A DNA stretch of 64,000 nt from an uncultured delta proteobacterium (GTDB taxonomy: Bacteria > Myxococcota > Myxococcia > Myxococcales > Myxococcaceae), in the NCBI GenBank assembly GCA_963796055.1, contig CAWCKH010000004.1, positions 3,296,001-3,360,000 of the forward strand, given 5' to 3'. The first letter of the stretch is position 1; the number at the start of each line of letters is the position of its first letter. The notes below the pieces were generated by a model. The model worked only from the letters and a program-made list of their open reading frames with translations. It searched no databases and was not told the origin of the DNA. A program made the translations under genes and the position numbers. Positions 28,091 to 56,414 of the stretch are shown in pieces.

Positions 28091-28468
28091 TCAGGGAGGA
28101 ACCGGAACCGCGCAGCTCTGCAGAGCCTCTGGCCGGTTCTTCGCCACCAGGGTCCAGCGGTCCACCGACTTGCCCGTCGTCTCGTCGAAGGTGGGGGTCC
28201 CGCCGGCATACATGGTCCCGGTCGGGTTCCCGTAGGGGTCCAGGCCGTGCCCGTTCAGCCACTTCTCCACGCAGTCGGTCTGCTTGGCGTCGAGCTGGAT
28301 GCGCGGTGCCGGCGTCGGAGCGGAAGCGGCGGAGCGCTCGGGCGTCGGTGACGGTCGAGCTGCAGGGGGAGCGGTCGCGGGTGGAGGGGGCGCGCTCGCT
28401 TCGTGCGAGGTCGACGGACGACATGCGGCCGCGGCGAGGAGCAGGACCGGGAGCAGGGCAGGGCGCAT
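28091..28468 (-). CDS. hypothetical lipoprotein
   Basis: Lipobox AAAC, Pro/Ala linker, small globular C-terminal domain with two Cys. Confidence 0.75.
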   Translation of the reverse strand: MRPALLPVLLLAAAACRPSTSHEASAPPPPATAPPAARPSPTPERSAASAPTPAPRIQLDAKQTDCVEKWLNGHGLDPYGNPTGTMYAGGTPTFDETTGKSVDRWTLVAKNRPEALQSCAVPVPP

Positions 28469-28489: not shown

Positions 28490-29149
28490 ATGCTCGGGGC
28501 GACGGTGATCATCGGCATGGGGGGGCTCGGGTGTCCGGCGGCGGTGGCGCTCGCCGGGGCCGGAGCGCGCCGGCTCACGCTCGTCGACCCCGACCGCGTC
28601 GAGAGCTCGAACCTCCACCGACAGCCCCTGTACGGGCCCGAGGACGTCGGTCGATTCAAGGTTCACGTCGCCCGGGAGCGGCTCGCCCGGGCGTACCCGG
28701 GCCTGGAGGTCGAGACCTGGGTCCAGCGGGTCGGTCCGGCCGAGGCGGAGGCGCTCCTGTCCCGGCACGCCCTGGGCATCGACGGCACCGACTCGGTCGA
28801 GGCCAAATTCCAGATGTCCGACGCGGTGGCCCGCACCGGAACGCCGCTCGTCTCGGGCGGGGTGGTCCAGTGGGGCGGCCAGGCGATGCGCATCGACCCC
28901 GGTGGCGCCTGTCTGCGGTGTCTCTACGGCACCCCCCCACGCGAGGACGAGGTCCCCACCTGCGCCCGGGCCGGTGTGCTCGGCTCGGTGGCCGGCGTTC
29001 TCGGCGCGCTCCAGGCTTCCCTGGCGCTCGGACCACCGTCACCCGCCGGACGGAGCACCCTGCACGTGGTCGACGGACGGAGCCTGCGGTTCCGGACGCT
29101 CACCATCCGGCGCGTGCCCGGCTGCTCGGGATGTGGAGCACGGGCATGA
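28490..29149 (+). CDS. MoeB/ThiF-family E1-like adenylyltransferase lacking the N-terminal helix
   Basis: GMGGLG P-loop, VDPDRVESSNLHRQ, DGTD, CLRC, PTCARAG, terminal CSGC. Confidence 0.92.
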   Translation: MLGATVIIGMGGLGCPAAVALAGAGARRLTLVDPDRVESSNLHRQPLYGPEDVGRFKVHVARERLARAYPGLEVETWVQRVGPAEAEALLSRHALGIDGTDSVEAKFQMSDAVARTGTPLVSGGVVQWGGQAMRIDPGGACLRCLYGTPPREDEVPTCARAGVLGSVAGVLGALQASLALGPPSPAGRSTLHVVDGRSLRFRTLTIRRVPGCSGCGARA

Positions 29150-29388
29150 CACCGGACGCGCGCATCGACATCACCGCCGAGGTCTGCCCGATGACCTTCG
29201 TGCGCACCAAGATTGCCCTCGAACGGCTGCCGGTCGGCGGCGTCCTCGAGGTCCGGCTGAAGGGAGACGAGCCGCTGCGGAACGTCCCCCACAGCGCCCG
29301 GGACCAGGGGCACACCGTGCTCGGGCTCGAGCCGCTCGGGGACGGAACCTGGCGGCTCCTCCTCCGCCGCGAGGGCGGCAGGTGCTGA
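29146..29388 (+). CDS. TusA/SirA-family sulfur carrier
   Basis: IDITAEVCPMTFVRTKIALE..GGVLEV. ATGA overlap with the E1 gene. Confidence 0.88.
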   Translation: MTPDARIDITAEVCPMTFVRTKIALERLPVGGVLEVRLKGDEPLRNVPHSARDQGHTVLGLEPLGDGTWRLLLRREGGRC

Positions 29389-30377
29389 CCGAGCCGCAGA
29401 TCCAGCGCTACGCCCGGCAGGTGCTGCTCCGCGACGTCGGCGAGCGTGGCCAGCAGGCGCTGGGGGCGGTCGGCGTCGCCGTCGAGCTCCCCCACGACGT
29501 GGCGAGCGCCGCGGCCGCGTACCTCCGCGCCGGCGGCACCGAGGTCCAGCTCGCTTCCGAGGGCGCACCCGCCTGGGCCCGCACCGCGCCCCTGCTCGCC
29601 TCCGCGCCGGTCGACCGCCTCCAGGCCCTCGCCGCTCCGGGTGCGCCGGAGCGCGGGGGCGTGGTGCTTGGTGCCCAGGGCGCCGCACAGGTGCTGTGGT
29701 CGATCGGCGAGGATGCTTGCCCGGGCTGTCTGCGTGGCGCCACCCGCGGCCTCGCTCCGCCCGCCCAGGAGAACTTCGCGAGCGTCCAGCTCGGCACCCT
29801 GGTCGCGCTGCTGGTGCAGCGGCGCGCGCTCGGACTCGCGCCGGCGATCGAGGGGCTCCGGGTGGACGCGTCCGGCGCCCTCTCCACGCTCGTCGCTCCC
29901 GCCTGCACGCACCGGCCGCCGCTCGTCCCGGAGCCGGTGCTCGCCGAGCTCGTCGCCCACCTCACGGCCGCGCTGCCGGACGAGGGGTGCGCGGTGCTGC
30001 TGGGGCGGGAGGAGGCCGTCCGCCTCGTGCCGATGCAGAACGCCCAGGCCGCCCACCACGCGCGCGATCCGGAGACGTTTCCGCGCTCCGCACGCCACGC
30101 GTTCAGCCTCGACCCGCGCGCCTGGCTGGCGCTGCTCCGGAAGGTCGACCGGACCGGTGAGCGTGTCCTGGCGATTGCCCACTCGCATCCCGATGGCAGC
30201 AGGCGCTTCTCGGCCGAGGACCGGCGGTGGGCAGCACCCGGCGGCCAGCCGCTCCTGCCGGGCGTGGCGCACCTCGTCGTGGCCTTCGAGAACGGCCAAC
30301 CACGGGGCGGCTGCTGGGCCGTGTGGGCCGATGGTGACTTCCTCGAGACCGACTGTCCGCTGCCGCGCCGAACCTGA
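29382..30377 (+). CDS. fusion of a degenerate ThiF-like domain and a JAB/MPN+ (Mov34) metalloprotease
   Basis: N-terminal LTEPQIQRYARQVLLRDVGERGQQAL and CPGC. C-terminal DEGC...HSHPDGSRRFSAED fits E-HxH-x7-S-x2-D. Confidence 0.85.
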   Translation: MLTEPQIQRYARQVLLRDVGERGQQALGAVGVAVELPHDVASAAAAYLRAGGTEVQLASEGAPAWARTAPLLASAPVDRLQALAAPGAPERGGVVLGAQGAAQVLWSIGEDACPGCLRGATRGLAPPAQENFASVQLGTLVALLVQRRALGLAPAIEGLRVDASGALSTLVAPACTHRPPLVPEPVLAELVAHLTAALPDEGCAVLLGREEAVRLVPMQNAQAAHHARDPETFPRSARHAFSLDPRAWLALLRKVDRTGERVLAIAHSHPDGSRRFSAEDRRWAAPGGQPLLPGVAHLVVAFENGQPRGGCWAVWADGDFLETDCPLPRRT

Positions 30378-30526: not shown

Positions 30527-31192
30527 ATGGCCCCGAACCAAGGCTTCACGCTCTGGCTGACCGGTATGTCCGGCGCCGGGAAAACGACCCTGGTCGACTA
30601 CATCGCCGCCCGGCTCCGCCAGGTGGCGCGTTCGGTGGAGGTGCTGGACGAGAACGACCTCGCCGAGGACCTCTGGGGCGGCACCGCGGACACCAAGGAG
30701 GAGCGGAACATCGGCGTGCGCCGGATGGGCCTCGTGGCCAACCTCCTGACTCGCAACCAGGTCGCGACCCTGGTGGCCTCGGTCAGTCCGTACAAGGCTG
30801 CGCGCGAGGAGAACCGGCGTCTCATCGGCCGCTACCTCGAGGTCTACGTCGATTGCCCCACCGAGAAGCTCATCCAGCGCGACTCGACCGGCAAGTACAA
30901 GAAGGCGCTCGCCGGGGAGATTCCCAACTTCGTGGGGATCACCGAGCCCTACGAGCCGCCCTCCTCGCCGGAGGTCACCATTCGCTCGGACGTGGAGTCG
31001 GTGGAGTCGGGAGCGCTCCGCATCTTCCAGGCGCTGCTGGACATGGGGAACGTCACCCCGGAGGAGCTGAGGGTCATCACCGGCAAGCGGATGAAGGCGA
31101 GCCCGCCGGCGCGAAAGGGCGCGCGCGCGCGGCCGGTCGCCCGGGCGGCCCGGGTCGCCAAGCCGCGCAAGGCCGGCAAGGGCAAGCGCTGA
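30527..31192 (+). CDS. cysC: adenylyl-sulfate kinase-like protein (divergent) with basic tail
   Basis: WLTGMSGAGKTT, SPY, YKKALAGEIPNFVGITEPYEPP. Confidence 0.85.
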   Translation: MAPNQGFTLWLTGMSGAGKTTLVDYIAARLRQVARSVEVLDENDLAEDLWGGTADTKEERNIGVRRMGLVANLLTRNQVATLVASVSPYKAAREENRRLIGRYLEVYVDCPTEKLIQRDSTGKYKKALAGEIPNFVGITEPYEPPSSPEVTIRSDVESVESGALRIFQALLDMGNVTPEELRVITGKRMKASPPARKGARARPVARAARVAKPRKAGKGKR

Positions 31193-31214: not shown

Positions 31215-32078
31215 GTGCTGACGTCCGCGCAGTGGCAGTCGCTGGTCGAGCGGAGCGCGCCGAAGCTCGTCCGGCTCCGCGAGGAGCTGCGGGGGCTCGG
31301 CTCGGCGCTGGTTGCGTTCTCCGGCGGAGTGGACAGCACCTTCGTCCTGCGCATCGCCCGGGACGAGCTCGCCGAGCGGGCGGTGGCGTTGACCGCCATC
31401 TCGGCGAGCGTCGCCCCGGAAGAGAAGCGCGAGGCGGAGGCGCTGGCGGCGGAGATGGGTGTCCGCCACCTCTCGGTCGACTCCGACGAGGTGAGCGATC
31501 CCCGCTACGCCGCCAACCCCACCAACCGCTGCTACTTCTGCAAGAGCGAGCTGTACACGCTGTGCACCGGGTGGGCGCGGCAGCTGGGGCTGGCGGCCAT
31601 CGTCGACGGGTTCAACGCCGACGACCTGCGCGACCACCGGCCGGGGCACCAGGCGGCGGCCGAGCAGGCGATCCGCTCGCCGCTGGCCGAGGTGGGGCTG
31701 ACCAAGGACGAGATCCGCGCCCACTCCCGCGCGCTCGGGCTGCGCACCTGGGACAAGCCGCAGATGCCCTGTCTGGCGTCGCGCATTCCTTACGGAACGG
31801 CGGTCACGGCCGAGCGGCTGGTGCAGATCGGCAACGCCGAGTCGGACCTGCGCGCGGCGGGGCTGCGCAACTTCCGGGTCCGGTACCACGGGGACATCGC
31901 CCGGCTGGAGGTGGCGGCCGACGAGCAGCACCGCTTCGCCGACCCCGAGTTCCGCGTGCGCATCCACCAGGCGCTCCGGGCCCGGGGCTTCACCTACGTG
32001 GCGCTGGACCTGGAGCCGTTCCGGTCGGGCCGGCTGAACGAGGCAGTGGGGCTGCCCTCCGCCGGAGCACACACCTGA
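31215..32078 (+). CDS. larE: LarE-family ATP-dependent sulfur transferase (CxxC...C type)
   Basis: PP-loop AFSGGVDS, NRCYFCK, DHRPG, PCLASRIPYG, FRVRYHG. Confidence 0.92.
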   Translation: MLTSAQWQSLVERSAPKLVRLREELRGLGSALVAFSGGVDSTFVLRIARDELAERAVALTAISASVAPEEKREAEALAAEMGVRHLSVDSDEVSDPRYAANPTNRCYFCKSELYTLCTGWARQLGLAAIVDGFNADDLRDHRPGHQAAAEQAIRSPLAEVGLTKDEIRAHSRALGLRTWDKPQMPCLASRIPYGTAVTAERLVQIGNAESDLRAAGLRNFRVRYHGDIARLEVAADEQHRFADPEFRVRIHQALRARGFTYVALDLEPFRSGRLNEAVGLPSAGAHT

Positions 32079-48663: not shown

Positions 48664-49254
48664 CTACGAGCCGCCCACCGCGCCGGTGCCGCAGGCCGGA
48701 CAGGGAGGCACCGCGCTGCCTGCCGAGGGTGGCGTCTCGAGATACAGGGTGATGCGCGACGAGACGATCCGGGGATTGCCCTGGGGGACGCAGTTGACGA
48801 AGTCCACCCCGGCGGTGGTCACCGTGTAGCCGTAGAACCCGAACGCCTCGACCACGGTCCAGGGCGGGATCCCGGGACCTCGGTCCATCAGCCACGTCTC
48901 GGTGCACCAGTTCGCTCCGCCACCGTTGGAGAGCTCCAGCGCCGGCCAGATGGCCTTGTCCAGATTCTGGATCTGGCGATCCCCCGTCCAGCCGTTCAGG
49001 ATGGCCGTCTGGTAGTTCGCGGCCGGGGTCAACACCGTCAGCGCCGCAGGGTAGTTGGAGCGGTAGACCGCCAGCTGCCGCTCGGCGGCGAGCGTGGCCC
49101 GCGCGGCGGCGATGCTCTGCCCGCGGGAGGCGATGCTCATCAGCAGCTGGTTCTCCGTGCGGCTGTAGATGAACGCTGCGATGAGCGAGAGAACCGCCGC
49201 CGCGGCGAGCACGACCAGGAGGACAAAGCCTCGGGGGGCAGGGGTTCGGCTCAT
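48664..49254 (-). CDS. pilX: PilX-like minor pilin
   Basis: RG/FVLLVVL prepilin site without Glu5, typical of PilX. Last gene of the cluster. Confidence 0.7.
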   Translation of the reverse strand: MSRTPAPRGFVLLVVLAAAAVLSLIAAFIYSRTENQLLMSIASRGQSIAAARATLAAERQLAVYRSNYPAALTVLTPAANYQTAILNGWTGDRQIQNLDKAIWPALELSNGGGANWCTETWLMDRGPGIPPWTVVEAFGFYGYTVTTAGVDFVNCVPQGNPRIVSSRITLYLETPPSAGSAVPPCPACGTGAVGGS

Positions 49255-50429
49255 GGGGTCACCGCGTTGCGGAAGAGGACCGACGTCTGCATGGTGGACC
49301 GGACCACGTTGTCCACCGTCGCCGGGAGATGGTTGAGCAGCGGCGGTGGCCCCTCCCCCGGGCGCCGCAGGGTTTCCTGCCCGCGCGAGGCGACCATGAT
49401 CTGTGCGCCGTAGATCGATGCTGCGGTCTGGGTGATCGCCGCCGTCCACGCCGGCTGGTCGAAGCCGCAGGTGGGGTCCCCGCCGGCAAGCTGGCACCAG
49501 CTACCCGCGGGGGACCAGCCGGTCGGAACGCGCCAGGCGATCTGGAGGTCATCCACGCCCTCGGCCACCATGATCGGGGGCAGCAGGTCGGTGGTGCAGA
49601 CCTGGACCCCGGTCCCCACCGGGTTACAGGGTGGGTTGGTCTGCATGTGAAGCCCGATGCGAGCGGGCCGTCCGGGCGCATCCGCAGTCTGGAAGACCAG
49701 ATACCGGTGTCGCTGCTGGACGACCTCCACCTGCATCAAAGGGCCGGGGCAGTTGGCCGGCCACGGCGTCGCCGAGGGCGCCAGGTTGACGTCCACGCTC
49801 TGGACGGTGAGCTGGGCGACCGCGCCACCGGCGATGGGCGGGACGACCCGGCCCATGCAGTGGATGTCGTCGTTCCAGAACATGAGCAGAGGGGCGAAGC
49901 TCCCCACCGCCGTCAGCTCGTTGGCGATGAACGGGTTGGGGGAGATGCGGAGGGTGCGCTGGTTGGGCAAGGGGATCCCCACCAGGCTCTGGACCTGCGC
50001 GGCCAGCCGTTGGGCGGTGGCCTGCTGCTCGCCCTGCAGCACCTCGAACGCATCCGTGCCGGGGATGAAGCCGGGCAGGGGAGGGGCGACCTGGACGATG
50101 GTGCTGGACGCCAGCAGGTCGTCCTGGAGCGTGGTGATGTTCGTGCCGAGATCGTCGTACGGGCGGACCACCACGGCGTAGGACACGCCGCCGTCCACCT
50201 GGGCGCCGCCGTGGAACCGAAGACCGGCGTTCTCCAGGTCCCGCTGCATCATGGTGAGCCCGAGCCCCGCCGTCGCCTGCGTCGAGAGCAGCCGCTCGGT
50301 GTTCCGCGCAAACTGGCTCTGGAGGTCGAACGCAGCCATCGCCGCGGTGATGATGATCAGTCCCACCGCGGCGGCGACCATCAGCTCCAGCAGGGTGAAG
50401 GCGCGCCGGCGCTCAGTTCGGACTGACAT
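49251..50429 (-). CDS. pilW: PilW-like minor pilin
   Basis: RRA/FTLLELMVA, RDLENAG, VAEGVDDLQI, C-terminal FRN. Confidence 0.8.
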   Translation of the reverse strand: MSVRTERRRAFTLLELMVAAAVGLIIITAAMAAFDLQSQFARNTERLLSTQATAGLGLTMMQRDLENAGLRFHGGAQVDGGVSYAVVVRPYDDLGTNITTLQDDLLASSTIVQVAPPLPGFIPGTDAFEVLQGEQQATAQRLAAQVQSLVGIPLPNQRTLRISPNPFIANELTAVGSFAPLLMFWNDDIHCMGRVVPPIAGGAVAQLTVQSVDVNLAPSATPWPANCPGPLMQVEVVQQRHRYLVFQTADAPGRPARIGLHMQTNPPCNPVGTGVQVCTTDLLPPIMVAEGVDDLQIAWRVPTGWSPAGSWCQLAGGDPTCGFDQPAWTAAITQTAASIYGAQIMVASRGQETLRRPGEGPPPLLNHLPATVDNVVRSTMQTSVLFRNAVTP

Positions 50430-50895
50430 AGGTCGCCTGGCTCACGGTGATGGGGTTCGCCCCGTTCGGCGGCTGGTTGGTGACCTGCACGGTCACGAAG
50501 TACGAGGGGACGGCGACGCTGCCGGTGCCCAGCTCGGGCGGCGGCAGCGCACCCGGCACGCCCGGCGGACCGGCAGTGTCCACGACGGTGACGGAGACGG
50601 TGTAGCTCTTGCCGCCGCCGTCGGGCTGCTCGGTCACCTTGTAGGGCGCAGGGCTGAACGGCGAGACGCCTCCGGTGGCGGTCTGCAGAGCGGTGAACCC
50701 CATCATCGACCAGCGCTCCAGCTCCTGGGTGGCCAGGCGGGCCGTCTGGGCGTAGCGCATGCCCTGGGCGGCGTTCGTCGCGCTCTTCACCGACAGCAGC
50801 GAGACCGCCACCACCGCGACGAAGAAGATGGCGCCAGCGACCAGCGCCTCCAGGAGCGTGAACCCCTTCCGCCTAAGGACACCAGGTCTCGCCAT
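50413..50895 (-). CDS. pilV: PilV-like minor pilin
   Basis: KG/FTLLEALVA, A..LA..ELE. Confidence 0.75.
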   Translation of the reverse strand: MARPGVLRRKGFTLLEALVAGAIFFVAVVAVSLLSVKSATNAAQGMRYAQTARLATQELERWSMMGFTALQTATGGVSPFSPAPYKVTEQPDGGGKSYTVSVTVVDTAGPPGVPGALPPPELGTGSVAVPSYFVTVQVTNQPPNGANPITVSQATYVSPN

Positions 50896-51463
50896 CGCGC
50901 TGTACCCTCGTCGTGCCATCGTTGAAGAGGATCACCGAGCGGACGATGCTGGGCTCGGTCAAATCACTCACCCGGATGCAGTACGGAAACGGGCCCGGCG
51001 CCGGGGTCACCGTGACCTGCCCGTTCATGTTGAAACCCACCTGGAACGGTGCCGGCTGCACCACCCCGGCCCCGGTGACGACCACCAGCGACTGCCCGTT
51101 GGTGGTGGGGAGGTTGTCCCGGGAGTAGTCCACCCGGTCCGTGAGGGCGACGTAGCTGACCACCGCCGTGGTCGGGTCCTGCTTGTAGAAGACGAAGCCC
51201 TGGTTGGCGTCGGCTCCTGCGGCTCCGGGGCCGTTCGGGCCGAAGAAGTAGCCTTGCGCCGCCCCCTGACTCACCGCGTTGGTGCGCACCGTCTGCAGCC
51301 GCTGGAGGACGAGCCGGGCCTCGGCGGCCACCCGGGAGACCTTCCGGGCGTTGCTGAGCGCATTGGCGGCCAGGGCGACCAGGATGGCGGAGATGGCCAC
51401 GGTGACCATCAGCTCCATCAGGGTGAAGCCCCGGGCTGCTCGCCTCACTTGACGCGTTGCCAT
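50873..51463 (-). CDS. fimU: FimU/FimT-like minor pilin
   Basis: RG/FTLMELMVTVAI, LQTVRTNAV, FNMNG. Confidence 0.75.
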   Translation of the reverse strand: MATRQVRRAARGFTLMELMVTVAISAILVALAANALSNARKVSRVAAEARLVLQRLQTVRTNAVSQGAAQGYFFGPNGPGAAGADANQGFVFYKQDPTTAVVSYVALTDRVDYSRDNLPTTNGQSLVVVTGAGVVQPAPFQVGFNMNGQVTVTPAPGPFPYCIRVSDLTEPSIVRSVILFNDGTTRVQRDGETWCP

Positions 51464-54400
51464 CCGCGCACCTTCACGGTCAGCGGTGAGCCCACCAGAT
51501 CGATCTGCCGGGGATGCGATGGGTCGGTCTCGTTGGCCACGTAGAGCTTGTTCCCCCGGACGATGGGAGCGCTGGGGATACCGCCCTGCCCCAGCTGCGC
51601 GTTGCGGCTGTCCCCCAGGTCGAGCTTGGCGACGGGAGCATCACCGTTGAACGGGTCCTTCAGCGCGAGCACCGGCAGCCCCGAGCGAGCGTCGAAGGCG
51701 TAGAGGAACCCGCGGCCGACCTCGCAGATGTGCCCGGCGGTCGAGACCGGCGCGTACGTGGTCACGAAGATGACGTTGTTCAGGAAGGCGGGATCCGCCA
51801 GCACCTTCTCCCCCGGATCGAAGCGGAGGACGAACAGTGGCGCGGCGCAGCCCGACCCGGTGTCCTGGAGCCCGTACAGGTAGTCGTAGGCGCCGAGCTG
51901 GCCCGGGTTGTCCGAGTCACCGGTGCCCACGTACACGTTCAGCGACCCGGTGGTGTCCAGGGCGAGCATCGGCCGATTGTAGATCTTCGGGCGGGGGATG
52001 CTGCTCAGGGGGAGCGTCAGCGGGACACCGCTCACCACCTGGACGCCGGTGGTGGCGTCGAGGATGGGCGTGGGGACGCTGTTGATGTTCAACGCGCAGG
52101 TGGGATTGGTGCTCGCCGGATCGAAGAATGGATCGGCGGAGGTGTTGCCCGGCTTCCAGGTGGTCATGTCCGAGCTGGTCAAGTCCATCCGCCAGATCTT
52201 CCCCTCGGTGTCCGCGAAGAAGACCTTCCGAGCGACGGCCCCGTCTCCCGGACGGAACAGAGTGGGCCGGGTGGCCACGCCGTTCGGCGCCGGATCGGCC
52301 GGGTCGTCCCAGATGGTGAAGGCGGCGCTCTTGGCCCCGTCGGTGAGGACCTGGCCGGTCTTGGCGTCGAGCACGTAGAACAGATTGCCCCAGGGCTGGA
52401 TGGCGTCCACTCCCGGGACCACGCCCCCGCCGATGAAGACCGACCACGGCTTCCCGGTGCTGATCTCGGTACGGGCGATGACCGGTGCCCCCCAGGTCTC
52501 GCCCAGGCGCGGGACGTACGCCCGCGAGGGGACCATGGTCAGCGGGGAGGAGACCTCCCACTTGGGCTGGGGGTCCGCAGGATCGGTGATGTCCAGGGCG
52601 TACAGACCGCCGCCGCCCTTGCCGAGCGCCCCGACCAGAAGCGTCCGCCACCCGTCCTTGACGGTGCACGGGCTGGCGCTGAACCCGGGGCCACAGACGT
52701 CCGCCACCGCCACGCTGCCGTCCACCCCGTAGTCGTGGGCGTGTCGCATGTTCTTCAGCTTGGGGAGAAGCTGCTGGGGGACGTAGCCCCAGCGCTCCTC
52801 GCCCGCCCCGGGTTGCGCCACCGGGAAGCCGCCGGCGTTGACCGTCACGTTGTCCTTCACCGCGTGGAGCATCCCGTCGTTGGCCCCGATGTAGACGGTC
52901 TTCTCGCGATTGACGATCAGGGGGTCGGCGCGGAACGCCGCGTAGGCCCCGGTCTCGGTGAGGTCGGGCCAGGTGGTGCTCTGGGAAGCGCCCTCCACCA
53001 CCGCCGGCACGGCGTGGAAGATGTCCGAGGCCCGCGAGGTCTTCTCGGTCTTCCCGTCGTCGAAGAGCTCTGGTGAGGTCGGCGCGCCCTTGTTGAGCAG
53101 GAAGGCGATGGTCTCCTTCGCCACCGAGGGCGAGCTGCCGTCGATGAGCGTCTCCAGCGCGGTCTGGTCCGCGGACAGGTTGCTGTTCCACCCCGCGGCG
53201 CTGACGCAGGTGTGCGTGCCGCCGGAGCAGCTGTCGTAGTCGAACCAGATCCGGTTGGCGGGGGGTGGGGCGCTGGGATTCAGCGAGGTGTAGACCTTCC
53301 GGGAGGGCTGGGCGTCGATCACGTCGCCGTATCGCCAGAGATAGTTGTAGTTCCCGTCGCTGGTGAGGGTGTTGGCCAGGTTGGGAAGGTTGGTGGTCTT
53401 GATGTCGATCGAGTCGAGCTTCCCCTGCCATTCCAGGCCCTGCAGGATCCGCATGTACCCGACGAACATCTCGGTGCCCAGCACGTTGACCACCGGCTTG
53501 GAGCGGGTGAAGTAGCCGGAGAGGATCTTCCCGAAGCTGATGTCCAGCGAGGCGAAGAGGCGGGCCTCGTCCGTTCCGTCGAGCGCCACGCCAGTCGTCA
53601 GGTCGAGCTTGCTGGCGTCGGTGGACGACACCGCCGTCCCGCCGGCGCGGGCCATCGCGTTCAGCTGGGAGGACGACAGGCCGAAGCCGATGACGAAGGT
53701 CTTCACGTCCACGTGGACGCCGCCGTTGGAGACCAGGTTCCGCAGATCGGTCACCGCGGCGACCGGGTCGTTGCCCGCGATCACCGGCTGCTCCTCACCA
53801 TCGGTGAGCAGGAGCACGTAGTACTTGCGGCCGCAGCCCGAATACGGATCGGTGTCGATGTAGCTCCGGAGGTACTCCGCGACGTTCTTCAGCGAGCCGG
53901 TCAGTGGCGTGAAGTCGCCGAAGTCCGGCATCTGGACCCCGGTGGGGTTGTTCACCGGGTCGTACCTGGACAGCATCTTGAGCAGCGGTCCGTCGGTGGC
54001 GGGAGTCGCCCCGTTCAGAGCGTTGTTCAGCGCCACGCCCTGCCAGGAGATGGCGGGGGTCACCTGGTCTGGCAGCTGCCCCCAGCCGCTGTTCCGGTTG
54101 GGAGGCATCGTCGCCGCGACGGCGCTGAACGCCGCCGGGGAGAGAGACGAGGTCGCCGCGGTCACCTCGTAGTTCACGTCGGGCACAGGGGGCGCCGCGG
54201 GTTGGGGGCCGTTGGTGACGGGCCCCGCCGGCTCGGTGTACGAGTACTGGAAACTGCAGATGCCGCCGCAGGCCGCGGGAACGAAGAGCGGGGGGCTCGG
54301 TGGGTTGGTGTCCGCCGGGTCGTAGATGTTCGCCATCAGGCTGACCCAGTAAGCGTCCCTGGCGCCGGTGGGGGCGATCCAGTCCCCCGAGTACGCGAGC

Positions 54401-56286
54401 GGGCTCGGCGGGAAGAGGGGATCGGTCAGGCTCGCCACCGGCTCGGCGGAGGGATAGGGCGGCAGATAGTTGGTGGTGAACGGCATCGCGCCCGGCCCGT
54501 ACGGGACGCCGGTGTAGCGGCCCAGCGGGTAGTTCGTGACGCCCACGGTGGTGTCGGTGTCCCAGGTGAGCTTGCACACCACCCCGCCCGAACACTGGGG
54601 GTGCGCAGCGCTGCCGGTCACCAGATTGGGGCAGTCCCCGTTGCTGAAGCTTCCCCCGCTGTAGGTGACCGCGCTCGGATACCCAGCGACGTCGTCGTTG
54701 CCGGTGTACGTCCAGGCGGTGGTGCCGAGGAGGTCGCCGTCGTTGGGAACGTAGGAGTACGTGTACTTGGGCGTGCTGTAGAAATCGGTGTCGAACTTGT
54801 AGTCGCAGTAGTCGGTGCCCTGGGCCGTGTTGTAGGTCCACTGCTGCGTCTGGTAGTCGCAGCGGACCGCGGTCGGGCGCCACTGGTAGATGGGCCGCTG
54901 GAACCGGCAGAAGTGCTGCTTGACCTCGCCAGCCACGGTGAAGTCGTTGATCATCGTCCAGGTGCAGCTCGAGCCGGCAGCGGCGCTACAGCCGGTCGCG
55001 GCGCTCGGCGTTCCGGCGCCCGGGCCACCGGTGGCGAGCGACTGCCATTCGGGTGGGCCGGCGCTGGAGGTGACCACCGTGCTCAGCGCCGGGCAGGTGA
55101 CTCCCAACGCCGTGATCAGCACGTCGACGGTGCTGCTCGTGGTGCCGACCAGCTGCCACGCCCCAGGAGGGGTGTAGATGCCGTCGTAGTAGTTGGTGAC
55201 CCCGCCGGTGAAGATGTTGTACGGCCCGGCGGTCTGGGCGATGGAGCAGCCGCCGAAGACCAGGTTGCACGAGGCGCCGACGCCCGAATACGGGCTCGTC
55301 TGGCCGCAGAGATCGGTGAACGGGACGGTCGTCGGCCCGGAGCGGGAATAGGTGATGCCTCCGGAGATGTACGGGTCGCCCAGGTCGGTGCCGGAGGTGA
55401 ACGGCGGGAACGGGGTCGTGTGCTGGCCGGTGAGCGTCAGGTCGCACGGATCGCCCGCGCAGACGCCGGCGTTGTAGCCGACAATCGGGTTGGTGCAGAC
55501 GCCGGGATTCACCAGGCTGACAATCCCCGCCGGGCTCACCGTGTGGTCAAAGTCGTAGGTGTACGTGCCGCCGTTCAGGGACGTGGCCCCGCCCGGCGAG
55601 ACCTGGCCGGGCGTGAGGGTGATGGTTACCTGGCTGCCGAGACCACTGGTGCCGTTGCCCACGTTCTTGCTGAGGACGTCACCGGTCAGGCCGGTTCCCA
55701 CGACCCACTTCCGGGTGGGATGGCTGGCAGGGATACCCGGTGGGGTGAAGCTGAACGGGGTGGCGGCCAGCCCGGTGGGCCCGCCCGGGCCGGTGGAGTC
55801 CAGGTCGTCGAGCACCGGGCCGAACTTGTAGGTGCCCCACGGCGCGTAGCCGAGCGAGATCTTGTCGTACCGGCACTGCGTCCCGACGGTCGAGGGGCGG
55901 CTGGTGAGCTGGTAGTACTGGCTGTAGCCCGACAGGCCCATCTCGATGCGCGGGCTGTACTTGGGCAAGGTGCGGTAGAGCGCGCGCTTGCCGATGCAGA
56001 ACTTGTTGCGGCACGCGGTGTCCGGCGTGGGGATGTTGGGGTCCCAGTCGTCGGCGATCGCGGTCGGATCGTCGTTCGGGTCCGAGGGCCGGTAGGCCAT
56101 CGACTTGCTGGTGTCGAAGATGATGAAGACCTTCGGGTTGTAGAAGTTCTGGAGGCCCGGCAGGTCGGTGACGCTCGGTCCCGCCGCCTGGGCGCGCGGA
56201 ATGCCGAGCGGCAGCGGGCCGGCTGCCATCACGAACACCAGAACCCACATCACCGAGAACTGGGAGACGAGCTTGAGGTGACGCAT
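51445..56286 (-). CDS. pilY1: PilY1 type IVa pilus tip adhesin with interrupted vWA domain
   Basis: Signal peptide, FDTSKSM...LLTDG...FVIGF vWA motifs, C-terminal PilY1 propeller (YIGANDGMLHA, ERWGYVP, YGVDG, YALDITDP, VYVGTG). Confidence 0.9.
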   Translation of the reverse strand: MRHLKLVSQFSVMWVLVFVMAAGPLPLGIPRAQAAGPSVTDLPGLQNFYNPKVFIIFDTSKSMAYRPSDPNDDPTAIADDWDPNIPTPDTACRNKFCIGKRALYRTLPKYSPRIEMGLSGYSQYYQLTSRPSTVGTQCRYDKISLGYAPWGTYKFGPVLDDLDSTGPGGPTGLAATPFSFTPPGIPASHPTRKWVVGTGLTGDVLSKNVGNGTSGLGSQVTITLTPGQVSPGGATSLNGGTYTYDFDHTVSPAGIVSLVNPGVCTNPIVGYNAGVCAGDPCDLTLTGQHTTPFPPFTSGTDLGDPYISGGITYSRSGPTTVPFTDLCGQTSPYSGVGASCNLVFGGCSIAQTAGPYNIFTGGVTNYYDGIYTPPGAWQLVGTTSSTVDVLITALGVTCPALSTVVTSSAGPPEWQSLATGGPGAGTPSAATGCSAAAGSSCTWTMINDFTVAGEVKQHFCRFQRPIYQWRPTAVRCDYQTQQWTYNTAQGTDYCDYKFDTDFYSTPKYTYSYVPNDGDLLGTTAWTYTGNDDVAGYPSAVTYSGGSFSNGDCPNLVTGSAAHPQCSGGVVCKLTWDTDTTVGVTNYPLGRYTGVPYGPGAMPFTTNYLPPYPSAEPVASLTDPLFPPSPLAYSGDWIAPTGARDAYWVSLMANIYDPADTNPPSPPLFVPAACGGICSFQYSYTEPAGPVTNGPQPAAPPVPDVNYEVTAATSSLSPAAFSAVAATMPPNRNSGWGQLPDQVTPAISWQGVALNNALNGATPATDGPLLKMLSRYDPVNNPTGVQMPDFGDFTPLTGSLKNVAEYLRSYIDTDPYSGCGRKYYVLLLTDGEEQPVIAGNDPVAAVTDLRNLVSNGGVHVDVKTFVIGFGLSSSQLNAMARAGGTAVSSTDASKLDLTTGVALDGTDEARLFASLDISFGKILSGYFTRSKPVVNVLGTEMFVGYMRILQGLEWQGKLDSIDIKTTNLPNLANTLTSDGNYNYLWRYGDVIDAQPSRKVYTSLNPSAPPPANRIWFDYDSCSGGTHTCVSAAGWNSNLSADQTALETLIDGSSPSVAKETIAFLLNKGAPTSPELFDDGKTEKTSRASDIFHAVPAVVEGASQSTTWPDLTETGAYAAFRADPLIVNREKTVYIGANDGMLHAVKDNVTVNAGGFPVAQPGAGEERWGYVPQQLLPKLKNMRHAHDYGVDGSVAVADVCGPGFSASPCTVKDGWRTLLVGALGKGGGGLYALDITDPADPQPKWEVSSPLTMVPSRAYVPRLGETWGAPVIARTEISTGKPWSVFIGGGVVPGVDAIQPWGNLFYVLDAKTGQVLTDGAKSAAFTIWDDPADPAPNGVATRPTLFRPGDGAVARKVFFADTEGKIWRMDLTSSDMTTWKPGNTSADPFFDPASTNPTCALNINSVPTPILDATTGVQVVSGVPLTLPLSSIPRPKIYNRPMLALDTTGSLNVYVGTGDSDNPGQLGAYDYLYGLQDTGSGCAAPLFVLRFDPGEKVLADPAFLNNVIFVTTYAPVSTAGHICEVGRGFLYAFDARSGLPVLALKDPFNGDAPVAKLDLGDSRNAQLGQGGIPSAPIVRGNKLYVANETDPSHPRQIDLVGSPLTVKVRGWQRVK

Positions 56287-56302
56287 CGCGAGGGGGAGCG
56301 AC

Positions 56303-56318
56303 AGCAAGGCACACGCCA
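56303..56318 (-). promoter_or_regulatory. sigma54 (-24/-12) promoter upstream of pilY1
   Basis: Minus strand TGGCGTGTGCCTTGCT, with GG and GC 12 nt apart. Confidence 0.6.
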
Positions 56319-56387
56319 CTCCGGAGCGGAGTTTTGCGGTGTGCTCCCGGGTGGTTGCTGCGACCCGGTCCCTCATCCGGAGGTCAA

Positions 56388-56414
56388 CGCAAACTTTGCC
56401 TCGCAAAGTTTGCG
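56388..56414. promoter_or_regulatory. perfect 12-bp inverted repeat, candidate enhancer-binding-protein site
   Basis: CGCAAACTTTGC-CTC-GCAAAGTTTGCG. Confidence 0.6.

Follow-up and report, generated by a model that had tools for sequence, protein, structure and literature searches.

A candidate two-gene ThiF in Myxococcales: an armless adenylation subunit and a putative arginine-finger partner fused to a JAMM protease

The DNA analyzed here (the window, a 64,000-nt stretch of contig CAWCKH010000004.1 from a Myxococcaceae genome, GCA_963796055.1, which is 98.5% complete and is called G000 below) contains three overlapping genes: gene A, which encodes an adenylation protein of the MoeB/ThiF type; a TusA-like gene; and gene C, which encodes a MoeB-like domain fused to a JAMM metalloprotease. 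All coordinates are positions within the window. We propose that A and the N-terminal domain of C form a pseudo-dimer that acts as the ThiF of Myxococcales, and we give this reading a probability of roughly 0.6. An earlier note, made from the letters of the sequence alone, had listed the features of the three genes, all of which we found where it placed them, and had read A and C as an obligate heterodimer with a tethered protease.

Gene A encodes 219 amino acids that retain the complete ThiF/MoeB signature, namely the P-loop GxGxxG (G9-x-G11-G12), D33, SNLxRQ (N41/R44/Q45), the lysine (K57), DxxD (D98/D101), C158, and the two CxxC zinc pairs (C141/C144 and C212/C215). The catalytic columns are invariant in 27 orthologs. 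What is missing from A is its own N-terminal RYxRQ arm, which was also absent upstream of the P-loop from 29 of 29 orthologs checked. The Pfam ThiF match starts at position 24 of the 238-position model and spans 24-236 (E 1e-54), and the alignment with E. coli ThiF (1zud, E 3e-38) begins at ThiF residue 31. Against the ThiF equivalog TIGR02356, whose cut-off is 275 bits, A scored 171 bits; a full-length E1 (activating enzyme) from the operon also fell below it, at 236 bits. A is a bare adenylation domain, with no helical catalytic-cysteine (CYS) insertion, extra domain, catalytic-cysteine domain or ubiquitin-fold domain (UFD), and its monomer model is confident (predicted local distance difference test score, pLDDT, 94.9).

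The truncation of A is real, because 5 of 11 same-genus orthologs have an in-frame stop 1-6 codons ahead of the start and because the upstream frame of A, although open for 46 codons, contains no RYxRQ. A mis-called start was rejected on account of these stops. The earlier note was thus right about the truncation, but its argument that there was no room for an arm is not strictly true. We also rejected, within the genus, the idea that A and C are decaying pseudogenes: in 7 pairs the ratio of nonsynonymous to synonymous substitution rates (dN/dS) was 0.10-0.16 for A, 0.26-0.51 for the N-terminal domain of C, and 0.20-0.37 for the JAB domain.

Gene C encodes 331 amino acids, with RYARQ at residues 9-13 (the Arg12 codon is at 29415-29417), CPGC at 113-116 and CTH at 175-177. 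Its N-terminal domain keeps the dimer helices and the zinc ligands C113, C116, C175 and H177, and has no P-loop, SNLxRQ or DxxD. Pfam alone detects only the JAB domain in C. A profile of 28 syntenic C domains, however, matched MoeB (1jw9, E 2e-19), ThiF and Uba4, and weakly SAE1 (E 0.003); Arg12 aligns with the second Arg in the RYNRQ of MoeB, and the first structural matches of the predicted fold (pLDDT 87.5) are ThiF and MoeB. A direct hhalign comparison of the C and A profiles was weak (probability 10%), as expected because C and A share little, and the homology rests on the profile match of C to MoeB and on the fold matches. Judged from sequence, the N-terminal domain of C is a dead subunit derived from MoeB, which kept the fold and the arginine finger and lost the ATP-binding motifs.

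The mean column identity of the 28-domain alignment is 34%, and only L2, R12, Q24 and G52 are invariant. When C sequences were clustered at 50% identity, SNLxRQ was found in none of the 150 best clusters, while the arginine motif was found by pattern in 149, the remaining one having RYSRT; among 149 aligned clusters Arg12 is 100% conserved and C113, C116 and C175 at least 95%. Because the C profile itself favors the arginine motif, loci were additionally judged by synteny. A search from a deep-branching C returned only 9 close relatives and then ordinary MoeB proteins. In a quick-method tree of 60 E1-like rows, from which 6 rows were dropped after motif extraction and which carries no claim on donor or order of events, the C rows formed one long-branched group and the A rows did not resolve.

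The JAMM residues of C are intact (E201, H267, H269, S277 and D280, in the order E...HxH-x7-S-x2-D), and this domain is the sole match in the genome above the Prok-JAB family cut-off. The fusion is real, because RYxRQ is present in all 65 of the best C matches and is joined by the JAMM motif within one chain in 63; a missed stop codon between the two domains, a doubt that the earlier note had raised, was rejected on these grounds. The named relatives of C are Myxococcaceae. JAB stands as a gene of its own in most relatives, where it survives the loss of A and C; the fusion to C occurs in this genus, G020 and a small number of other clusters. The tethered protease of the earlier note therefore holds as an intact, in-frame JAMM domain, but as a lineage-specific add-on. 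In one cluster (P0221) a CysO-like carrier stands in frame with the dead C subunit, either as a real fusion or through a missed stop.

We predicted the structure of the complex of A, ATP and C, a prediction that the earlier note had called for. The interface score (ipSAE) was 0.94, compared with 0.34 for the best control; the mark used for this score is reached by 116 of 157 solved pairs and by 2 of 215 mismatched pairs. Runs shared at least 98% of contacts, the partner pLDDT was at least 88, and the predicted interface takes in residues 8-13 of C and residues 39-50 and 158-167 of A. C is more conserved at this interface than elsewhere (0.52 versus 0.40), with 4 of 178 circular shifts as high. 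No Arg-ATP contact is reported in the output. We consider an A:C heterodimer likely.

Of the 42 loci in which A is truncated with intact motifs and the DNA beyond it can be seen, 41 have C immediately downstream. The A-based search covered 41 genomes, 36 of them with an A ortholog (2 at a contig edge; a partial match in G040 was left out), and all 34 assessable loci have C downstream, in G038 by coordinates only. A second search added 8 intact truncated E1s, 7 of which have C (88-238 amino acids, one frameshifted), none being found for G047; G300 was left out of the count as too fragmented. In three class-level relatives (G263, G139 and G259) the same operon encodes a full-length E1, frameshifted in one case, and no C, and the A profile matched a full-length MoeZ-like gene best in all 12 of the C-less genomes inspected. 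The complementary loss, of the arm from A and of the ATP motifs from C, is thus conserved across Myxococcales.

The two genes also decay together. In all four genomes with a decayed A (G175, G168, G305 and G333), SNLxRQ and Cys158 are lost from A, and C lacks Arg12 or the whole arm. TusA is missing from all four of these loci and from both of the A-deleted loci inspected. The decayed A stays a full open frame with its active site erased (L133, L138, L209 and L246), as does C in G305 and G333, and such frames may keep a non-catalytic role.

Because one genome without A carried a thiO-thiS-thiG-thiE-thiF operon, we profiled thiG. Among 48 chosen genomes, all 28 with intact A and C have a native thiG (split in two pieces in one), and both genomes with decayed copies have none. 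Of 150 Myxococcaceae genomes that are at least 95% complete, 135 have a native thiG (one interrupted by a stop), and A is present in 133 of these, including the unpublished G187, on which none of our claims rests, and a frameshifted copy in G007. Of the other 15, one (G290) has an intact A, two have a decayed A and 12 yielded none; a different thiG, adjoining a second ThiF-family match, occurs in eight of these 15, and the three replacement loci inspected are all thiO-thiS-thiG-thiE-thiF operons with a full-length ThiF. No thiF was found within 1.5 kb of thiG in any of 31 native loci. In family f7, thiG is present in 27 of 29 genomes, the two without it being G305 and G333. For G333 the decay was predicted beforehand from the lack of thiG, and we found a decayed A, with RHAAQ in place of RYARQ in C. 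Tests of 13 Myxococcaceae that lack A or have a decayed copy, and of G290 and G329, turned up no native thiS.

Other genes behaved differently. The control gene moaE was retained in 15 of 15 A-less or A-decayed genomes tested, JAB, cysC and larE were retained in the inspected loci where A and C were lost or decayed, and the CysO-like carrier was retained in G071, G168, G175 and G305 despite a decayed or deleted A. We did not count as native the 193-bit "ThiG" of G071 and G159, whose neighbors are a HAD gene and a CysO-like carrier rather than thiS; a similar match in G168 was classed by score. Since A tracks native thiG, and since A, C and TusA decay or vanish where thiG is lost, A:C is probably the missing ThiF. 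CysO, MoaD and LarE were set aside as main clients because they do not track A and C. As an observation in its own right, the divergent ThiG-like gene of G071 and G159 (L203:3893-5607 and L204:3465-5179) is accompanied by genes for a HAD phosphatase and a CysO-like carrier, a set that, by analogy, possibly serves a thiosugar-type pathway.

ThiS, which ends in VGGG-A, and a fused MoaD-MoaE are the only beta-grasp carriers in this genome, in which we found no CysO-like gene, and the same two were the only carriers found in 12 of 13 genomes of the genus. The ThiF-family genes of this genome are A, a rhodanese-MoeB gene and a TcdA-like gene. One residue follows GGG in the ThiS of all 13 genus genomes, compared with 2 of 27 outside the genus, which gives the fused JAMM domain a nearby job; its likely tasks are the trimming of ThiS (GGG-A) and the cleavage of MoaD from MoaE. 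The earlier note saw no ThiS or MoaD gene nearby and left the substrate open; from the thiG profile and the co-loss, we now consider it likely that ThiS is the main substrate of A:C.

Several points weigh against this assignment. Within A, conservation at the predicted interface (0.64) is close to that elsewhere (0.61), with 72 of 218 shifts as high, and the docking score may reflect memory of MoeB/ThiF homodimers, because MoeB homodimers are solved. According to an excerpt of PMC13139853, the arginine finger (ThiF Arg11, MoeB Arg14) is supplied by the neighboring subunit, but is non-essential in MoeB/ThiF and absent from TcdA. In G047, whose genome is 95% complete, the operon E1 is truncated and we found no C. 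In the 150-genome counts the presence of A was classed mostly by score rather than by motif inspection, and the losses of A and C are grouped in roughly three lineages (genus g30; g40/g45; g56), so these counts overstate independence. G305 and G333 retain a ThiS-like gene; G290 has intact A and C, and no thiS or thiG was found in its 450 contigs; and G034 and G230 of family f4 have a high-scoring thiG and no A or C. Native thiG without A also occurs in G144 and G327, the two exceptions among the 135 genomes, and in G190 and G219. The operon cysC is missing there (as in G144 and G327) or lies at a contig edge, which suggests that assembly gaps account for these four. Finally, a rhodanese-MoeB (MoeZ-like) protein, a possible activator of ThiS, is encoded in all genomes examined, and mycobacterial MoeZR serves several carriers (PMC3227635, in excerpt).

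The same finger data bear on whether A needs C at all. A could work as an Arg-less homodimer, or be paired with the full-length MoeZ-like protein, C being an accessory that enhances the rate or stabilizes; the confident monomer model of A and the G047 locus, where no C was detected, would fit, as would the mere 26% cost of the R59A change in Tcd1 (PMC13139853, in excerpt) and the slow activation of NEDD8 by UBA3 without APPBP1, where R15A merely slows the reaction (excerpt of PMC6031683). We regard this as unlikely, given that C is kept in 41 of 42 loci, even at 88 amino acids, that Arg12 never varies alongside an intact A and disappears once A decays, and that operons with a full-length E1 have no C. 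Because the finger is reportedly non-essential and UBA3 can act in the absence of APPBP1, A probably needs C as a structural partner that also raises the reaction rate. The heterodimer of the earlier note is supported by the complementary loss, the predicted complex and the joint decay, whereas the word "obligate" is not established, in view of these reports and of G047.

The operon itself suggests other clients. In the fullest operons the order is Rrf2-CysK-E1-TusA-CysO-like-C-CysM-JAB-cysC-larE, which matches classes 4c/4e in the consulted part of Iyer 2006 (PMC1779556), and in many relatives a CysO-like gene lies between TusA and C, where it may be a second substrate. A:C could therefore be dedicated to this carrier, for cysteine synthesis of the CysM/Mec+ type, and be a remnant or have switched substrate in this genus. 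That is somewhat less likely still, since A is held at its low dN/dS in a genus in which 12 of 13 genomes yielded only ThiS and MoaD-MoaE, and this one no CysO-like gene, and since the CysO-like gene persists where A is decayed or deleted. The downstream larE, which follows the module across Myxococcales, raises the thought that the module supplies sulfur to LarE for the nickel-pincer cofactor, in the manner of TtuB and TtuA (PMC9283937, in excerpt), or that it activates MoaD for molybdopterin, and LarB/LarC and a Lar_N gene are present in this genome. We hold this to be improbable, because larE and moaE stay when A, C and TusA are lost or decayed, and the characterized 4Fe-4S LarE takes its sulfur from IscS (same excerpt). 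More improbable again is the conjugation of a ubiquitin-like protein, a role that the earlier note had entertained. The layout resembles the inactive and active adenylation domains (IAD and AAD) of such E1s, C158 sits at the E1 thioester position, and a JAMM protease is present; but A lacks both a helical CYS insertion and any extra domain, the A/C profile tracks a metabolic gene, and no E2-like open reading frame (ORF) was recognized in the neighborhoods read, no genome-wide E2 search having been made.

Under the ThiF reading, A would pair with the N-terminal domain of C in a pseudo-dimer of the MoeB kind that has a single active site. ATP and the sulfur carrier would be bound by A; C, which would bind no ATP, would complete the dimer and contribute the N-terminal arm and, in trans, Arg12. 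In the ThiF/ThiS/ThiG pathway, ThiS thiocarboxylate (ThiS-COSH) supplies ThiG in thiazole synthesis. We infer from this family chemistry and from the co-loss that, after the JAMM domain of C has trimmed the extra Ala/Val from ThiS (..VGGG-A) in this genus, A:C would adenylate the C-terminal Gly of ThiS; a TusA persulfide, to which the co-loss of TusA points, would then convert the adenylate to the thiocarboxylate, perhaps via Cys158 of A, and ThiS-COSH would feed ThiG. Several lineages carry an in-frame fusion of A and TusA (L054:7832-8716, L048:8236-9117, L134:7512-8321 and L113), which supports TusA acting directly with A. We put slightly better than even odds on the whole scheme, in which Myxococcales make thiazole with a two-gene ThiF consisting of an armless active subunit and a dead scaffold with an arginine finger, TusA replaces ThiI/rhodanese, and in this genus the dead subunit carries a ThiS-maturing protease, making a process-activate-sulfurate unit.

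The genes of the locus are collected in the table. A and TusA overlap by 4 bp and TusA and C by 7 bp, and the GC content at third codon positions of the three is 0.88-0.93, typical of coding frames. The ATG of the divergent gene at 28468 is 21 bp from that of A, with no obvious ribosome-binding site before A, so that the promoters of both genes must lie inside the opposite gene or the mRNAs must be leaderless; a promoter and terminator scan found nothing.

Genes and domains of the A-TusA-C locus and its immediate neighbors
Feature	Position	Strand	Remarks
Small lipoprotein-like protein, divergent gene	28091..28468	-	Outside the system; bounds the 5' end of A; upstream in many relatives
Gene A, active MoeB/ThiF-type adenylation subunit without arginine-finger arm	28490..29149	+	Pfam ThiF; proposed catalytic half of two-gene ThiF
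TusA/SirA-type persulfide carrier, CPMT motif	29146..29388	+	PF01206, E 8e-19; proposed sulfur donor to ThiS adenylate
Gene C, N-terminal domain (residues 1-179), inactive MoeB-like	29382..29918	+	Profile matches, model, Arg12 conservation
Gene C, C-terminal domain (residues 180-331), JAMM/Prok-JAB metalloprotease	29919..30377	+	Prok-JAB, E 1e-19
cysC, adenylyl-sulfate-kinase-like	30527..31192	+	TIGR00455 over cut-off; conserved downstream neighbor by synteny
larE, CxxC...C type sulfur insertase	31215..32078	+	TIGR00268, 305 bits; conserved downstream neighbor by synteny

Some neighboring genes deserve mention. The CysK-like gene upstream of A has no lysine for pyridoxal phosphate binding in 5 of 12 upstream copies caught by pattern, while the downstream CysM-like copy keeps it. 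The loci concerned are L048:9114-9980, L049:9156-10109, L057:4862-5740 and L129:3768-4682 (also L131 and L134). This adds a second dead paralogue to the operon, which may act as a regulatory partner of the adjacent Rrf2 protein, CysK-CymR being a precedent. Although the cysC-like kinase is conserved, neither PF01747 (ATP-sulfurylase) nor PF01507 (the family of CysD and of phosphoadenylylsulfate reductase) had a match in this genome, which is 98.5% complete. The larB/larC and Lar_N genes (C4:1469714 and C4:400585 of G000) are located away from larE, and from these sequence matches the nickel-pincer pathway looks complete in this genome. Elsewhere in the window, a large minus-strand ORF (51445-56406) followed by pilin-like genes (49251-51463) resembles, judged by eye, a type IV minor pilin/PilY1 cluster.

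If the proposal is true, this is a bacterial two-chain counterpart of the SAE1-UBA2 and NAE1-UBA3 layout in primary metabolism. It would fill the missing-thiF gap in myxobacterial thiamine synthesis, with TusA as the indicated sulfur donor; Geobacter without thiF has been noted in the consulted part of PMC545781. Close orthologs of A and C are widespread in the family, and living intermediates (full-length E1, split pair, 88-residue relic and decayed pair) would show how a heterodimer originates. A two-chain pair of an active and an inactive subunit would also be a simple model for the rise of the SUMO/NEDD8 E1 layout and for the retention of a "dispensable" arginine finger. There is a warning here as well, that operon neighbors such as CysO/CysM and larE can mislead about the substrate of an E1.

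The literature that we covered, which did not extend to Burroughs 2009 in Proteins (reportedly a survey of the E1 superfamily, which might mention a two-gene case), describes no two-gene bacterial MoeB/ThiF heterodimer and no myxobacterial thiF. The division into IAD and AAD is already known from eukaryotic E1s, BilD and Tcd1-Tcd2; the link to ThiS is new here. E. coli ThiF-ThiS and MoeB-MoaD (1zud, 1zfn and 1jw9) share the fold and catalytic motifs with A, and C is homologous over its length, but ThiF and MoeB are one-gene homodimers with two active sites, whereas A and C are two genes with complementary parts and one predicted active site. Yeast Tcd1-Tcd2 is a ThiF-family paralogue heterodimer with one active site, in which the inactive subunit lends a non-essential arginine finger and stabilizes the active one; it differs in being eukaryotic, in acting on tRNA (ct6A), and in having two full-length subunits with an extra C-terminal domain (PMC13139853, in excerpt), while in our pair the active subunit is physically armless and the dead one shrinks to 88-230 amino acids. 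SAE1-UBA2 and NAE1(APPBP1)-UBA3 likewise have separate inactive and active subunits with the Arg coming from the inactive one (APPBP1 Arg15; PMC6031683, in excerpt), but A:C has no catalytic-cysteine domain or UFD, no E2 was seen, and its role is likely sulfur transfer; convergence is a simpler reading of the shared layout than common ancestry. BilD, the type II Bil E1, is a bacterial IAD-AAD pseudo-dimer with Arg9 from the IAD, and known E1-like proteins of bacteria other than BilD are stated to be homodimers in the portion seen of the preprint PMC10557695; its IAD/AAD division also appears in PMC11354881 (in excerpt). BilD, however, is one IAD-AAD-CYS chain encoded in an operon with an E2 and a ubiquitin-like protein for phage-defense conjugation (same preprint portion), whereas A and C are two genes with no CYS insertion and no E2 recognized nearby.

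The operons that join ThiS/MoaD, E1, JAB, SirA and cysteine synthase (Iyer 2006, classes 4c/4e) have the same gene set as the fuller relatives of our locus, including SirA/TusA and adenylylsulfate kinase. The excerpt of that paper mentions no split E1, and the carrier and both synthases are gone from the operon in this genome; the combination that marks the CysO/CysM/Mec+/MoeZ pathway, a CysO-like carrier with cysM beside it, is absent from this genome and present in many relatives. A and C track thiG, not the CysO-like carrier of these operons. Finally, Deinococcus DRJAMM cleaves a MoaD-MoaE fusion (PMC8832034, in excerpt), and MoaD is here also fused to MoaE after GG; in contrast to DRJAMM, the JAMM domain of C is fused to a dead E1 subunit, and by analogy it would cleave the same kind of fusion.

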